A stretch of 23,818 bases of DNA from NCBI GenBank assembly GCA_043732485.1, contig JAYTHP010000220.1, positions 1 to 23,818 of the forward strand, read 5' to 3'. Shown here one piece after another: positions 220-13,990 of the stretch. Source of the stretch: Oligoflexia bacterium. Lineage in GTDB: Bacteria; Bdellovibrionota; UBA1018. How positions within the stretch are numbered: the first letter of the stretch is position 1; every line of letters begins with the position of its first letter. The notes beneath the pieces are model-generated. The model was not told where the DNA came from. It worked only from the letters and a program-made list of their open reading frames with translations, and ran no database searches. The translations under genes and the position numbers were made by a program.

Positions 220-561
220 TTAAGACGATGGGGATGGGGACGGAGATTTGGACTCAGATTGAAGCGGGGTTTGGGATTGCTCCATAGTTTCAATTTGGCG
301 ATAAACCGCCACCCAGGCTTCGCCATCTTCTTGCAGCTGGGCTAAAGCACGCTCCGCACTTAAAAAAAGAGCGGCCACCTGTTGATCTTGCTTCACTTCC
401 GGGATCAGGGACAAAATGCGCAGCAACCCCCCCAACATCCCTAAACTTGAGCGCAATTGATGCACTTTTCCTTCAGGCGGGAAAAACCCTGCAGGTGCGG
501 TAAACTCGACGGGATAGACGGACTCTTGCAGGGCTGTTTTATAAGGATTACGAGAAATCAA
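220..561 (-). CDS. Small protein resembling a stand-alone HisKA (DHp) domain
   Basis: 113-aa ORF with TTG start, overlapping the upstream regulator by 14 nt. KVHQLRSSLGMLGGLLRIL resembles the H-box helix (aHElRtPLt.i.G..elL) and is followed by a second helix, AALFLSAERALAQLQE. No HATPase domain. Confidence 0.5.
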   Translation of the reverse strand: MISRNPYKTALQESVYPVEFTAPAGFFPPEGKVHQLRSSLGMLGGLLRILSLIPEVKQDQQVAALFLSAERALAQLQEDGEAWVAVYRQIETMEQSQTPLQSESKSPSPSPSS

Positions 562-2074
562 GAATAAACTCTCTTTGGTTGACTTTCTTTAGCCTGGCAC
601 GCGAGCGAATCTTCTTCACTTCCTTCAAGTTAATCTTGAGTTGCGCCAACTTATGATACAGCCCGGTGATCGAAAAACCCATCAGCTCAGAGACTTTCTT
701 CAAGTCACCGTCGCACAAATTCACCGCCGAGACGATATAATGGCGATCAATGTTCGTCATGCAAGCGTCATAGCTTTCGCGACTAATTTTGGTAATCTTT
801 TTTGGAAACGGAAGCTCGACGGGACAACTGGGCGCCACAGTGTGAGTGACGTTGGCTTGCACAAAATCGAGCATATCCAACTGACAGAGCAGCGGAAACC
901 CCCGCATGGCAAGCGTGGCATCAATCACCCCCCGCACTTGCTGAAAATTTCCCGGCCACACTTGATCTTGCATAAAATGAGCGGCATCAGCACTCAAAGT
1001 ATAGCGCTTTCCCTCAAACTGGCGCTCTAAATAGTAATCGACAATCTGGGCAATATCCCTACTTCTTTGCCGCAAAGGCGGGAGTAAAACCTTATTTTCT
1101 GAGAGTAACGCATACAAATCCGGATCCCAAGCCCGTGACTCCAAGCCCGAATCCACCGAGGACGGCAACAACGCCGGCGCCGAGAACATCCCTGCTACTG
1201 CGACCTCACCGACATTCAGCAATTCGATGCCAATGAGTCGCACGTCGATGGCCACGGAGTAATCGGCTTCCGGCAACACCACCACTCCCGCCCGCAAACA
1301 CTCAGCCAATCGTTTTTGCAAATCAAGCGGTAGGCTCGTCAGATCATGAATCACCAGATCGCCACGAAAACACATTTGCAGAAATCCGCGAACCACCGAG
1401 CGCTCACCCTTTGCGTTAACGCTTGCCTTGCCAAAGAGCAGTGCCTCGACATCGTGAGGCGCGACTTTTAAAAGATCCAGCACCTGAAAGGGGCGGTAAC
1501 AATCCTTCCTCGCCTCCCACATTTTCCTGGCAAGCGTCAGGGCGCCGGATTTTTGCTCAGCAACCAACAGCGCCGGGAGCGAAGGTTTTTTTTCCATCTC
1601 TTCCACCCGCTTTAAAGCATTCATTAAGGCCGCAGACTGCCCTAACAGCGGACAATCTTGAAACTCATCTTGGGTTTGTTGTAAATCCAAATAATGAGTC
1701 GAGCGAATGCGCCTTAAAGCCTCAGGAATGCGGATCTGGAGATGGGCAATCATGCTGGAGGACTTTAAGATAAAATCATCTGCGCCGTAAGCATAAGCCT
1801 TTTTGATCCCACTAAAGTCGTCGTCGTAACTCAAAATGATGATGGCCATCCAGGGGAACTGATTTTTTAGCATCGGGATCAAATCAATTCCAGAAATCCC
1901 CTCCAGCTTGAGATGCTTATCCAACAAGATTACATCAAAATTACTGTTTTTTAGTCTTTGCAGCGCTTCTGTCGATTCTTTGCAAATCTCGATGTCCATC
2001 GAAGAGCTCAAATAACGTGTTAACTCGACCTGCAACACTGGATCATCATCTAAAGAGAGCACTTTGGTTAACAT
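548..2074 (-). CDS. NtrC/Fis-family response regulator (REC + degenerate AAA+ + HTH)
   Basis: Receiver motifs LDDD, ILLD, IILS and GADDFILK. bEBP-like segments LLGQSAAL, LQKRL, IDVRLI, LPPLRQR and WPGN. C-terminal Fis-type HTH (GDLKKVSELMGFSITGLYHKL). Confidence 0.9.
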   Translation of the reverse strand: MLTKVLSLDDDPVLQVELTRYLSSSMDIEICKESTEALQRLKNSNFDVILLDKHLKLEGISGIDLIPMLKNQFPWMAIIILSYDDDFSGIKKAYAYGADDFILKSSSMIAHLQIRIPEALRRIRSTHYLDLQQTQDEFQDCPLLGQSAALMNALKRVEEMEKKPSLPALLVAEQKSGALTLARKMWEARKDCYRPFQVLDLLKVAPHDVEALLFGKASVNAKGERSVVRGFLQMCFRGDLVIHDLTSLPLDLQKRLAECLRAGVVVLPEADYSVAIDVRLIGIELLNVGEVAVAGMFSAPALLPSSVDSGLESRAWDPDLYALLSENKVLLPPLRQRSRDIAQIVDYYLERQFEGKRYTLSADAAHFMQDQVWPGNFQQVRGVIDATLAMRGFPLLCQLDMLDFVQANVTHTVAPSCPVELPFPKKITKISRESYDACMTNIDRHYIVSAVNLCDGDLKKVSELMGFSITGLYHKLAQLKINLKEVKKIRSRARLKKVNQREFILDFS

Positions 2075-2325
2075 GGGACTGTATTGATAGCTGAAAATGG
2101 CAAAATCAACAATAAAAATAAAAAGAAACCGGAAAAAAAATTGAAGTTTTTCAGAAATTAGGATTTATAGGTTTTAGCTATTTTCTTAAGTATCTAATAA
2201 CAATAGTTTTTTTTATTTTTTTACTAAAAACTGTAAATTTTTTTAAAAAAAATTTAAATTTTATTTTTTATCTTTTTTTTTCAAAAAATCACTAGACAAA
2301 GCTCGTGAAAATCGATAACCGTAGT
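2075..2325. promoter_or_regulatory. Very AT-rich divergent promoter region
   Basis: Long A/T tracts between the regulator start and the structured segment. Weak + strand promoter candidates are TAGACA (2293-2298) and a sigma-28-like -10, ATCGATAA (2311-2318). Confidence 0.5.
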
Positions 2326-2776
2326 TAAGCAAATCAATTCACTTGAGGCGCGAAAAGGCTGATCCATTAAGGTTTTTTCAAAAAAAAGCCTGAAGCAGAA
2401 GTTCAAAAGAGCGAAAAAAAAGGTAGACCTGAAAACTCAAAAACTTGCAAAAGTTTGACTGAGTCACACGAAAACCTCAAGTCGCTCATGAGCTATTGGG
2501 AGGTGGAAAAGAGAATGCCCGTGAAAACGAGCGATTAAAGGAGTGCTTTAAGTGATGAGATGAAAAGAGCCTACGTCTTGAAACTTTTTTGGGTGCTGAA
2601 ACATTCAAAAAAGTTTTTTGGGTCAAGGAGTAAGCCCCTCCCTGTAAAGAGGACTTCAACCCTAACTCGAAATCTCAAGCCGCGCAAGCTCAAAGTGAAC
2701 CACATTGGGTCTTTTAATTTTGATCCTGCCGGAGATAGTGCTCCTCAGGATCGTTTGGCTGCTTCAAGGAGGAGTT

Positions 2777-2884
2777 ATGGCTGTTTTATGTTTATGTATC
2801 CTGCTCGCAAAGAATGGATTCTCAACGATCGTTTCGCGCTTTTCCGAGCAAAAAATTGACCTCACCCACCGAGCTCGTCCCTAA
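2777..2884 (+). CDS. Putative 35-aa small protein MAVLCLCILLAKNGFSTIVSRFSEQKIDLTHRARP
   Basis: AAGGAGG SD at 2766-2772, ATG at 2777, TAA at 2882-2884. Hydrophobic N-terminus. Below the ORF-track length cutoff. Confidence 0.4.
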   Translation: MAVLCLCILLAKNGFSTIVSRFSEQKIDLTHRARP

Positions 2885-3089
2885 TTCCACAATAAGCCCG
2901 AATTTCGGCTCACTCAGGTCGCAGAAAAAGGTGGCGCTGCGCCAGCCCTTCTTCTGAAGTTTGATGGCAGTTCGGGAGAGTAGGTCCGGCAGAGATGATA
3001 GCGGAAAACCATCAAAGAGCAGAAGATCGGTGCGGTGACTGATTGATCGCCCCCACCCCGTAGACTGACGCTGCGTCTCTCAGACAAAC

Positions 3090-3139
3090 AAAAAAGACAG
3101 GCGGACGGCAAAATCTTGCAGCCCGCCTGTCTTTTTTTT
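3090..3139 (+). terminator. Intrinsic terminator, potentially bidirectional
   Basis: A6-GACAGGCGG (3090-3104) pairs with CCGCCTGTC-T8 (3123-3139). Confidence 0.85.
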
Positions 3140-3155
3140 CCCAAAAAAGCCCGCG

Positions 3156-3416: not shown

Positions 3417-3430
3417 ATGCTACTTCTTTT

Positions 3431-3590
3431 AGGGGAGTCCCTTAAGAGAGTCAGATCTCAAGGGAGAGAAAAGCCAAGCCACCTCCCGGCACCCTCCAGC
3501 AAAAGTTTGCTTGGAATGATCGCGAGAAGAAGGACCAGAGAACGGACAAGGGACTCGTCAAAAAAATGACGAAAGACAAAAGAGTCCTCA
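3431..3590 (+). promoter_or_regulatory. Structured leader or sRNA upstream of the porin gene, with mutually exclusive helices
   Basis: GAGTCCCTT 3435-3443 pairs perfectly with AAGGGACTC 3548-3556, or locally with 3460-3465. GGACTC also pairs with GAGTCC 3582-3587. Hairpins at 3495-3515 and 3555-3572. Confidence 0.4.
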
Positions 3591-3708
3591 CGTTTAGCTT
3601 TGAAATTTAAAGGTTAACCACAAAACATAATGAGTAAAAGTTTTTTTCATTTTACTCAAAACCCTATTCCAGCTACTGACGCTAAACCACTCCAAGGGAG
3701 CACAATCG

Positions 3709-5139
3709 ATGAACACCACGAACAGCAAGCCGACGACGACAGCAACTACCACTCTTTCCGCAACTCATCTCACAGGGTTACAACCTGATCGAAGCTTCTT
3801 GCCACTTGGCGGCAAGCGTGCACAAGACTCTTCACTGCTTCATCCCCTGCTGAGCTCTATCTCTTGCTCCTCCCTGATCTTAAGCATCATGCTGCTGTCT
3901 GGCCTTTCTGATCTTGCCGGCCAGTCCGCTTCCCTGGCTTACGCCTTTTCTGAGCCCATGGCGCCGGTGGAAGAGGCCTTCGTCGAGAGCGGCTTGCCGA
4001 TTAAGATCTATGGCTTCATTTTACCCACCTTCATTCAAACCTCAGGCGCGGTGGAGTCGCTCAGCCAGCCGAACTCCAGCGCTTTTACCGCCGCAGGCAA
4101 CCCCGTACTCACAGGGTCCTATGAACCCAGCGATAGCCGACTGAGCTTTCAGGTGCAGCAATCAAGATTTGGCTTTAATATTGGCAAAGACAAGATTCGT
4201 GGGACCTTTGAGTTTGATTTCTTTAATGCCCAGAACCCTACCCCCACTGCCGGCTCACTTTTACGGCTGCGCCGGGCGTTTGGTCAGTTTTTCTTCTCAG
4301 AAACCGACTCCGTGGTGGCCGGACAAGATTGGGACGTTTTTGCGCCCTTGATCCCACATACCTATAACTTGATTGGCCACTTTTATATGTCAGGCGATTT
4401 GGGTTTTATGCGACAGCAACTAGTCTGGGTCCACGCGACTCCCTCGTTTGAATCGCGCGTCGGGATTGGCATGCAAATGCCGCACAATGCCAGCACCAGC
4501 GGTGGTTTGAACGCCGACAGCTTAATGGAAGTCTCCAACACCCCGACGCTGGCAGTGCGCCTGACCCTGAAAGAAGGACTGAGCCAACTGGGGATTTCAG
4601 GCATTGCCACTCGTTTGCTCACCAACCCGAAAAGTTTCTGGACCACACCGGTTCCTGCCTACGGCGCCACCTTGTTTGCTGAGTGGGTCGGCACGGACGT
4701 GGCCGTTAACATCCGCAGCGAGTTTTACATTGGCCGCAATCTCGCTAACTTAGGGACCTTCAGCTTAGGCTTTTTCTCACCCGGCAGTGATATGAGTGAG
4801 GCCGGCGGCTGGTTCACGGTGAAAAAACCGATTGGCAATCATGCCATTTATGGCGGCGTGGGCTATTCTGCCATCTTGAATCAAGCGGACTTGAAGCCCA
4901 GTTACTTAAACACCTCCAAAGGTCCGACGCTGATGAATGCCGCCTATGGCCCTGGCATCAACTGGAACGGCACGGCCCGCTTAGGTTACGCCTATGAACC
5001 CGTGGCGCATGTCAGCTTCTTTACCGAGCTCGCTTACTTGCAATCCTCGTTTGCCTTGTTTGCCTCTGACATTGCAAGCGGCATCAACTCTGATCCCTCG
5101 GTGTTTGTCTCCTACTCAGGCATGATGCTGACCTTCTAA
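3709..5139 (+). CDS. Outer-membrane beta-barrel porin, DcaP-like
   Basis: SD AAGGGAG and a hydrophobic signal-like segment. Motifs IKIYGFI, QSRFGF, FEFDF, LRLRRAF and GQDWDVF. Amphipathic beta strands and a C-terminal Phe. Confidence 0.75.
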   Translation: MNTTNSKPTTTATTTLSATHLTGLQPDRSFLPLGGKRAQDSSLLHPLLSSISCSSLILSIMLLSGLSDLAGQSASLAYAFSEPMAPVEEAFVESGLPIKIYGFILPTFIQTSGAVESLSQPNSSAFTAAGNPVLTGSYEPSDSRLSFQVQQSRFGFNIGKDKIRGTFEFDFFNAQNPTPTAGSLLRLRRAFGQFFFSETDSVVAGQDWDVFAPLIPHTYNLIGHFYMSGDLGFMRQQLVWVHATPSFESRVGIGMQMPHNASTSGGLNADSLMEVSNTPTLAVRLTLKEGLSQLGISGIATRLLTNPKSFWTTPVPAYGATLFAEWVGTDVAVNIRSEFYIGRNLANLGTFSLGFFSPGSDMSEAGGWFTVKKPIGNHAIYGGVGYSAILNQADLKPSYLNTSKGPTLMNAAYGPGINWNGTARLGYAYEPVAHVSFFTELAYLQSSFALFASDIASGINSDPSVFVSYSGMMLTF

Positions 5140-11712: not shown

Positions 11713-11997
11713 ATCAAGCGTTATGGCACATCGCCTGGTCCTTGGCCAACCCTTGCCCAAGCTAGAACACGAAAATTTTCTCCCCCACCTTTGCCCGTGC
11801 CACCCTGACCGTGACTCCACTGACGCCCCTCAACCTTTTTACGCGAGGGCTTCAACGCCCCTCCACACCCCAAGGGGGCCGCAAAATAAAAAAAATAATT
11901 GCCCCCCCTCTTAAATCGACGTTAATCTGAGAGCCTCAAAGTCACGCCCTCTCTCGTGATCTTGCCCAGAAAATGAGACACAAAGAACCTGACGCCA

Positions 11998-12997
11998 ATG
12001 ACCAACAATGACAATGACAATGACACAAAAAAAAAGAAAAACTCGCACTTTCCTGCAGAGACCGTACGACTGAGTTTCCTGCCAGGCCTCAAACTCCTTC
12101 TACTCCTGCTCCTGCCCATTCGCCTTAGCTTAACCCACGGCTCCGCACCTCTCTCCCCTTGCCAGCCACCCCGGAAGCCATGGAGCACTTCAAAGGCTAA
12201 TGGCGTCATCTGACGGACGTGCGCGTGTCAGAGTGAAACTTCAGCGTGAGCTTTTACTGTTAAAGTCGCCGACCGAACAGCTGCTCTTCCGAAACTCAGT
12301 TTTTGCAGCCTTAGGCTTTGAATTTGCCAACCCCTGGATCAAGTCCTACTTCAGCTCACGCCCGTGGTATAAGCCCGGCGGATCGCCCAAACCTTGCAAA
12401 GATCCTCCCTTTTGAGAGATTACAGCACACCGACTCACCTTTTTTCGACTTCATCCTCATGGACAAGCCCAGCATGCAGATGCTACCTGATTTAAGAGTC
12501 CTCCCCGGTGAAATTTACAACAAACTCTACCTACCAGGAAAAACCCTGATTAAATTGCAAAGTCTCAAACAATCGATCTGTTCGCAATACGGTAAGCGCG
12601 TGGAGAAACAACTGCTGCAAGACTCTTTCGAGACTCGCCCCTGGTAAAAGCCGCAAGTCAACTACTCCGATCAAAGCCTGACACCGACTGACTGGGCAAA
12701 CCTGGCGCTGCTTGAGCATTATGAAAAATTTGACTTAGACGCTGACATGCATCGCACCTTGCTTAGCTTCGAGTGTGAGCTTGCTGAGACAAAGGCGGAC
12801 GAAGAATGCGCGCCTCTCATCTATTGACCTTTACCCAGGGCGCCGTCACACTCACCGATTATTTCTTGTGCGAAGGCGGCGTTTTACAAGTCAGCTTAAA
12901 AAAACCCTCTTTGCAGCAACCCTGGCAGTCGCTGCAATACAATCTGGCAAAGAGACTGACTGCCCCCTTTGCGGTAAAGAGTGGTATTAAGAATTAA
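11998..12997 (+). pseudogene. Fragmented secreted protein with two YARHG-like domains
   Basis: Signal-like KLLLLLLLP in frame 11998-12213. LLFRNSVFAALGFEFANPWIKSYFSSRPWYKP at 12281-12376. A second copy, SICSQYGK...SFETRPW*KPQVNYSDQSLTPTDWANLALLEHYEK, is split by TAA at 12645-12647. Frame changes lie between the pieces. Confidence 0.7.
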
Positions 12998-13566
12998 AAT
13001 AAGGACCGTGCCAGCTTAAATTTTACCGCAACTCTTGCAAAAAGGGAAAAATCATTTTGGGTATCACCGATCCCCCACGACCGCCTTGCGCTTGCAAAAC
13101 CTTACGATCAACATTTTCCTGTCAAAATCTCGCTTTAAGCACCTCCTGGACGAGCCTCATCTCGCCTCGCCTCACAACAAAAATATGATTCTACTCTAAA
13201 GTTAAAAAAGATCAGCGCCTGATGAACGGTCGTGGCAGATACGTCGGCTGCAGGGCGTCTGACTCCAGGCGTGGCTCTAGTAGAAGTAGTAGGGGGCTAA
13301 AGATGCAATCTTTTAAGCTGACCGCGGTTTTGGCAGATTCCGTAGTTTTGCACTCCGCGGTGAATTCTTCGTCGCCAGAGGGAGGTGGGTCCAGCAACGC
13401 TCGCACCGACCACGGCTCAGTCGTGGCAGCACACACCAGTCTCTCCACCCCCACGATTTTGAACAAGAAGCCTGAACTCACGCTGAGGCTGGACAAAGTG
13501 TGACGCTGGGTTCAGTTCCTGCGGGGTGATCTCGCGCTTGAAAGGCTTTCCGCAGATCACAAGCGC

Positions 13567-13884
13567 CTAGTCTGCGGGATCTTGGAAATCAAAACTAAGC
13601 AGGAACCTTGCGTGACAAGCCGCGGCGATTCGAGCCAATACTGCCAACTGAGCGCTACGAGAAGCCGTCCCTAATTCAATCCAACGCACCATTGAGGGTA
13701 TCGACTGGAGCCGCTTGGCAAGCTCAACTCGATTCAATTCAGCACAAATTCGGGCCGCTTTAACTAACCTTGCCATCTCAGTGGTCACGTGCTCTTGTTC
13801 GAATGCAATCCTGATTTCTGGATCTTTCAGCAAGGCCTCAAGAAAGGGCCTGGCAGGACGTTAGGCTTTTTTTTTCTTAGTCAC
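13567..13884 (-). pseudogene. XRE-family HTH protein (HigA-like antitoxin), probably with an N-terminal nonsense codon
   Basis: LLKDPEIRIAFEQE...VKAARICAELNRVELAKRL...IELG...LARIAAA. GTG 13884 reads MTKKKKA*RPARPFLEALLKDPE in one frame (TAA at 13861-13863). It could instead be expressed from TTG 13833. Confidence 0.65.
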
Positions 13885-13990
13885 TGCCAAAAGTCTCTCT
13901 TCCGACTTTGGACAGTGCACGTCGGGGCAAGGTGCACGCAGGCACCCCTCAACTTTCAGCCCGTCCTCCAGCCCAAAAACCCGGCTCTTG

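Follow-up and report, generated by a model that had tools for sequence, protein, structure and literature searches.

Hok, tisB, aapA and ldr are families of type I toxins. The mRNAs of type I toxins are described as combining sequestration of the Shine-Dalgarno (SD) sequence, 5′ stem-loops and a terminator (T1TAdb, PMC8594479), and in ryfA, long regarded as a 300-nt non-coding RNA, the coding sequence of TimP, a membrane protein of 38 aa, starts at nucleotide +145 (PMC7667032). The locus described here lies in a window of 23,818 nt (the whole stretch of DNA that was analysed, contig C220) from a 2.58 Mb, 89% complete genome that alone represents its genus among the genomes compared. The original prediction had read it as a single large structured RNA of about 810 nt, possibly of a new class and of no family that it could recognise. 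Searches of the window and of both halves of the unit at E up to 10 indeed gave no meaningful Rfam match, and the description as a structured RNA is supported for the first ~375 nt, but that as a single 810-nt ornate non-coding RNA is not. On one strand, and in the order expected of an mRNA, the unit presents a folded domain, a hydrophobic open reading frame (ORF), a 3′ stretch and a terminator (Table 1). It is a real, partly folded orphan, likely consisting of a leader and a hidden small membrane gene, and it remains a lead, being one sequence with no homologue. We rank the mRNA reading first, a stand-alone 375-nt RNA as its main rival and an 810-nt ornate RNA third.

Comparison with timP (ryfA, RF00126)/TimR reveals a similar arrangement, in which a presumed structured non-coding RNA conceals a short hydrophobic ORF after a long leader, with the difference that the leader here would span ~380-450 nt, against 144 in timP as far as that system is described in PMC7667032. 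The locus also has no sequence match to RF00126, and no divergent sRNA was identified beside it. With type I toxin mRNAs it shares a small (<60 aa) hydrophobic ORF for a predicted membrane product (59 or 35 codons), an SD that has a complementary anti-SD close by (at 2740-2746 here), 5′ stem-loops and a 3′ terminator (PMC8594479), whereas the unit is single copy, has no family match and showed no antisense RNA, and its 5′-3′ long-distance pairing, between start region and 3′ end, does not rise above shuffled sequence (182/1000). Since no antitoxin, family match or above-chance start/3′-end pairing was found, we do not file it as a type I system. The unit further recalls GOLLD (RF02032), ROOL (RF03087) and OLE in its size and in the multi-helix junctions and A-rich linkers of its 5′ half, going by the features given for these RNAs in PMC12286853, but it differs from them in having no Rfam match, in being not unusually folded over half its length and in containing a small ORF, and it lies neither near tRNAs nor in a recognisable prophage and has no phage matches. 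Finally, merRNA and APsRNA1-7 of Bdellovibrio bacteriovorus are long intergenic RNA units in a probable relative, in which FliA promoters carry a CGATAA element similarly placed before the start (PMC3627812). Here a sigma28-like CGATAA element lies 8-9 nt upstream of the predicted start at 2326-2327 and FliA is present in the genome, but the -35 part fits poorly and there is no c-di-GMP riboswitch (merRNA) model match; the comparison with the APsRNAs is by their published description.

Table 1. Predicted features of the transcript unit and its upstream region (window coordinates)
Feature	Position	Strand	Basis
AT-rich upstream tract, putatively UP-element-like	2160-2290	+	sequence; GC 0.30 in 2001-2500
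Promoter-like stretch, TAGACA (-35-like) and TCGATAA (sigma28 -10-like)	2291-2321	+	motifs by sequence
Predicted leader: compactly folded 5′ domain, rich in purines, with linkers rich in A	2327-2700	+	folding z, composition
Switching strand; paired with 2543-2555 over 13 bp in state A, with 2681-2699 over 15 bp in state B	2338-2352	+	pair probabilities
Subdomain I: helix 2363-2368/2502-2507; hairpin of U and A runs at 2370-2391; long arm at 2396-2498, its tip capped by GCAA; hairpin with GAAA at 2516-2533	2363-2533	+	pair probabilities 0.74-0.99
Subdomain II, closing helix TGAGAT/ATCTCA: 15-bp U/A-run stem 2581-2616; hairpin 2637-2652	2556-2677	+	predicted fold
59-codon hydrophobic ORF from TTG (putative start); two hydrophobic segments and charged tail	2705-2884	+	
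Stable hairpin within the long ORF, with anti-SD-like GCTCCTC 2740-2746	2722-2752	+	p 1.00; z -3.78, 0/200
AAGGAGG Shine-Dalgarno and in-frame ATG 2777, 35-codon short form	2766-2884	+	
3′ untranslated stretch; local hairpins, no excess folding	2885-3089	+	
Hairpin resembling an intrinsic terminator, preceded by A6 and followed by T8	3090-3139	+	sequence

Folding in excess of shuffled sequence was found only in 2334-2700, in the hairpin at 2720-2755 and in the terminator. The first of these segments reached a z-score of -3.81, with none of 80 shuffles as stable, compared to +0.66 for 2700-3085, which 59 of 80 shuffles folded equally well; the values were -1.99 for 2326-3085 (1/25 shuffles) and -2.58 for the whole unit including its terminator (0/20). 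The folding check proposed with the original prediction thus comes out better than shuffles for the 5′ part, and the structure envisaged over ~810 nt is not confirmed for the 3′ half. Because 4 of 200 intergenic windows, sampled from 953, also reached a z-score of -3.8, the 5′ domain belongs to the top 2% without being unique, and its score rests partly on the U/A-run hairpins. Other intergenic windows of this genome with z below -4 lie at C198:22791, C175:59853 and C126:5312.

Strand evidence in favour of the plus strand is modest. The minus strand of 2334-2700 folds equally well (z -4.39); 2334-2560 favours the plus strand (-3.80 vs -1.62). The supposed bias of G-U pairs towards the plus strand was not borne out, as 2334-2700 forms 10 such pairs on the plus strand and 12 on the minus strand. 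On the plus strand A accounts for 77 of the 135 unpaired bases of the 5′ part, a signature absent in the 3′ half. The purine fraction of the domain is 0.594, a value reached in 36 of 1118 intergenic windows.

The strand at 2338-2352 can pair with either of two partners, and in 2326-2705 the resulting states A and B are nearly equally populated (p 0.48 vs 0.46). They lie 1.2-5.7 kcal/mol apart, depending on transcript length, with state A becoming dominant once the chain extends beyond 2720 (p 0.92-0.99 in longer transcripts). State B, which comes close to the outer helix originally proposed, zips the domain, 360 nt in length, together at its two ends. As state A dominates longer transcripts and the TTG region is fully open in neither state, the switch cannot be called clean.

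All of the complementary segments named in the original prediction are present, including the enclosing stem (2338-2344/2693-2699, 7 bp), the stem of its first domain (2341-2348/2475-2482, 8 bp), the pairs 2482-2487/2529-2534 and 2540-2544/2653-2657, the hairpins at 2370-2391, 2401-2412 and 2441-2456, the 15-bp apical stem (2581-2595/2602-2616, p 0.95) and the complementarity of 2498-2503 with 2637-2642. The layout that it assembled from them is disfavoured. Two of its helices overlap at 2341-2344 and 2482, and imposing four of them yields -79.9 kcal/mol, against an optimum of -105.2 kcal/mol, for 2327-2712 and -223.4 vs -253.2 kcal/mol for the whole unit, in calculations with pseudoknots outside the model. 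Moreover, the model pairs 2482-2487 with 2409-2414 instead of 2529-2534, and the complementary segments 2556-2561 and 2672-2677, originally put forward as a possible pseudoknot, form a nested helix.

The original prediction also saw no convincing long ORF. This holds for a 99-aa frame, which scores as non-coding, but it overlooked a short hydrophobic one. The plus-strand frame at 2699-2884 is open across 61 codons, and its opening coincides exactly with the end of the folded domain. Its best 35-residue Kyte-Doolittle mean, 2.40, was reached in none of 2000 whole-region, 2000 block and 5000 local dinucleotide shuffles. Using block shuffles with windows of 30, 35 and 40 residues, comparable hydrophobicity was likewise absent (0/3000), compared to 228/3000 at window 15 and 67/3000 at window 19; this statistic was selected after the frame had been seen. 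The 35-residue hydropathy ranks second among 365 crude intergenic pieces, the corresponding values for the RNase P, tmRNA and 6S RNAs of the genome are 0.20-0.79, and 23 of the first 35 codons have T in their second position. When 1006 intergenic ATG ORFs with lengths of 25-50 aa were compared, the 35-codon form alone combined AGGAGG with a 19-residue mean of at least 1.9, thresholds that are the candidate's own values, set post hoc. An AAGGAGG-ATG site by itself means little, since 39 of the 60 such sites in the genome head open frames of fewer than 60 aa.

Coding statistics are less favourable to the frame. In its choice of synonymous codons, the 59-codon frame is non-coding-like, with a log-likelihood ratio (LLR) of -4.26 that is as low in 3% of 399 real pieces and equals the median of 1535 intergenic frames. 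Codon usage of the 35-codon form is neutral, and its Markov coding score of -0.058 falls in the lowest 5-8% of real pieces. The ribosome site at TTG 2705 is weak (-3.9 kcal/mol). As to sequestration of the SD, the anti-SD-like segment at 2740-2746 sits in its own hairpin, and the opening energy is 7.5-11.8 kcal/mol. On balance, we infer that translation of the frame at 2705-2884 has a somewhat better than even chance.

The explanation that we tentatively prefer, at slightly below an even chance, is that of a ~810-nt transcript in which a folded leader precedes the frame for a small membrane protein and likely gates its translation, in the manner of timP or a type I toxin mRNA. Transcription would begin at about 2327 and produce one stand-alone 814-base transcript, in which the ~375-nt folded leader would precede a hydrophobic frame of 59 codons from TTG 2705, and an in-frame restart at ATG 2777 would provide the 35-codon product. 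The leader would likely set the output of this product, which is predicted to be translated and inserted as a small inner-membrane protein. More speculatively, the strand at 2338-2352 may toggle between its two partners of near-equal energy; because the state B partner (2681-2699) would cover the ribosome-loading region of the TTG, translation might be off by default and be switched either by a ligand, protein or antisense RNA or through a cut within the U-rich linker at 2710-2721. A stronger claim, that the 375-nt leader is a large bistable sensor RNA of a new class, found in a lineage of predatory bacteria, we consider rather unlikely; such an RNA would have its two folded subdomains clamped by a single switching helix and would gate a dual-start (59/35 residue) membrane peptide, or act in trans as well. 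If the preferred reading is true, the locus would constitute a gene for a small membrane protein whose folded leader is unusually long and offers a testable switch, and a limited full-text search found no Bdellovibrionota paper joining a small protein and a noncoding RNA. As with ryfA/timP, some candidates for giant non-coding RNAs may be mRNAs carrying hidden short ORFs.

The main rival explanation, unlikely but with an appreciable share of the probability, is that 2327-2700 closed in state B is a stand-alone structured RNA of ~375 nt, acting in trans as a protein-binding scaffold or sponge. It would be freed by cleavage in the U-rich linker, with the small ORF either co-transcribed (a dual-function RNA) or incidental. 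The joining of both domain ends in state B, which encloses both subdomains, speaks for such an RNA, as do the A-rich linkers and the U-run/A-run hairpins, which resemble those in the RNase P RNA of this genome. GNRA hairpins are also in excess (6 on the plus strand, with 3.2 expected, and 1 on the minus strand), and this twofold excess equals that of RNase P RNA, but it is not significant (P 0.09). Attack-phase sRNAs reported for B. bacteriovorus span 98-655 nt (PMC3627812). However, no terminator was found after 2700, where the 5′ domain ends, 4 of the 200 intergenic windows sampled match the best subdomain in folding, and the searches gave no homologue.

Distinctly unlikely, in our assessment, is a single ornate non-coding RNA of ~810 nt, a new GOLLD/ROOL-like class with RNA-only assembly in which the hydrophobic frame would be coincidental. 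One promoter-like-to-terminator unit without a long ORF, folding of the whole unit with its terminator that none of 20 shuffles reached, nested helices with p >0.9 in 2800-3060, the non-coding codon usage of the frame and the lack of an Rfam family are all consistent with it. On the other hand, the 3′ half shows neither excess folding nor the A-rich unpaired signature, the hydrophobic frame exceeds all 3000 block shuffles, and no relatives were found in phages or plasmids. Moreover, no tRNA was found in the window, whereas ROOL often lies near tRNA islands in the examples described in PMC12286853.

It is improbable that the region is lineage-specific intergenic DNA, with a terminator and stable hairpins but no functional long RNA or protein. 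The genome contains 307 crude intergenic stretches of at least 400 nt, U/A-run hairpins account for part of the z-score, no conservation was found and the promoter is not clearly identifiable, all of which favour this explanation. Against it, the fold, the hydrophobic frame, the SD-ATG and the terminator share one strand in mRNA order, and the absence of homologues fits an orphan lineage, since the neighbouring proteins are also poorly related to known ones.

It is very improbable that 2723-2994 represents a 5S mimic or an expanded 5S rRNA. A loop-E-like GATGGCAG...GAGAGTAGG that is unique in the genome, a helix-I-like CTGCCGGA/TCCGGCAG, the lack of any assembled rRNA and the existence of expanded 5S rRNAs (PMC7812874) point towards it, but a 5S profile that tolerates insertions gives the segment 18.6 bits, a score that 183 of 5000 genome windows also reach and that compares with 111 bits for a true 5S. 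By eye, the register of helix I does not fit and there is no helix II, and the 5S of the family belongs to another type, 117 nt long and differing in loop E. With the profile test failed and no colinear core with helices I-V, a 5S identity is largely refuted. In the 5S rRNAs of the family (loci L023-L042), loop E departs strongly from the canonical form seen elsewhere in the phylum, and one 5S at G024:C63:881-996 (L043) is unlike the family type (36.6 bits) and possibly on a foreign contig.

Other RNA identities were rejected as well. The genome's own copies of RNase P, tmRNA and 6S RNA are on other contigs; its RNase P RNA (C230, ~26012-25410, minus strand) is ~600 nt in length and carries long insertions as well as hairpins of U-runs and A-runs, and the Rfam match to it ends ~100 nt before the true 3′ end. 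A lysine riboswitch (RF00168), suggested by the end motifs GAGGCGCG and GGAGTGCT, had no match at the site at E up to 10. No SRP RNA model matched the unit. SRP RNA was not found in the source genome (G000) or in any of five near-complete relatives (G004, G005, G009, G089 and G091), and the M domain of Ffh was found in 0 of 5 genomes; with no trace of SRP RNA or of the RNA-binding domain of Ffh in the genomes searched, SRP may have been lost in this family.

Homologue collection for covariation, as proposed with the original prediction, yielded no RNA homologue in any search. DNA searches returned one 44-nt match in 60 relatives (E 0.004) and four short matches in 400 phylum genomes, all at chance level, and nothing in phages and plasmids, and nhmmer found nothing in 165 other loci and the source genome. 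Among single-sequence covariance models, R1 had no match in 74 family genomes and six in 150 phylum genomes (E 0.002-0.07; A-rich, with broken pairs), R2 none in 126 class genomes, and R3 one in 126 genomes (E 0.004), an unrelated palindromic stretch. Pattern searches gave 0, 56 (chance) and 0 loci in viral contigs and 0 in genome contigs. The open frames as queries had no homologue among metagenome, genome and viral sequences, phmmer with the 35-mer found only two matches, both in repeats of unrelated proteins, and the peptides matched no toxin family in Pfam, PHROGs or NCBIfam. At 0.59 bit per position, the single-sequence models may overlook distant homologues; given these weak models and the orphan lineage, the empty searches say little on whether the element is real.

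The T8 terminator noted in the original prediction follows a perfect 15-bp hairpin (3090-3104/3123-3137). At the other end of the unit, a sigma70 scan made no call in 2291-2321. A sigma28 promoter is doubtful: the motif at spacer 16 is not enriched, and the stretch is unlike the genome's own CTCAAG-N15-CCGAT pattern upstream of flagellin, from which its -35 part differs. Loose copies of CTCAAG-YCGC...AGCT...ATTGGG, resembling the sequence upstream of flagellin on contig C226, occur at 2474-2500 and 2672-2709, and are not significant by blastn. No antisense gene was identified, the scan found no minus-strand promoter, and terminator-like sites on the minus strand (three within the unit; 4 in the region vs 2.6 expected) are at chance level. 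No tandem or direct repeat origin of the unit was found.

An independent contig from one sediment run matches 2000-3147 without difference, indicating that the region is correctly assembled. Three glacier runs contain identical fragments, and no strain variants were seen among the DNA contigs of these and two further runs. The neighbouring genes are housekeeping genes. The divergent NtrC-like regulator (548-2074, minus strand) has a best identity of 26% among 5.8 billion proteins, and the porin-like protein 3′ of the unit one of 50%; as the neighbours too lack close relatives, the missing homologues reflect an orphan lineage. Relatives of this regulator share 23-35% identity with it, the best in family genomes reaching 35%, and it is probably sigma54-independent, judging by an AAA domain that by eye has an odd Walker A and no recognisable GAFTGA loop.

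None of 10 porin homologue loci in relatives has a large gene-free stretch upstream, and the unit is thus not a conserved leader of the porin gene. Eleven dapB loci have neighbours that differ from those here. A second folded stretch at ~3420-3680, before the porin gene (3437-3663, z -2.41 on the plus and -3.98 on the minus strand), has no Rfam match and is absent upstream of the porin homologues. Elsewhere in the window, 11821-13990 forms 2.2 kb without an ORF of at least 120 aa, among the longest such stretches of the genome, with only a short HTH-like frame at 13567-13833. The porin-like protein itself is unnamed (3889-5139, plus strand), and the 60 codons preceding 3889 have a non-coding score. 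In three relatives its homologue lies between genes that we take, from their translations, to be SulP-type transporter-like and DabA-like, which hints at a role in inorganic-carbon uptake.
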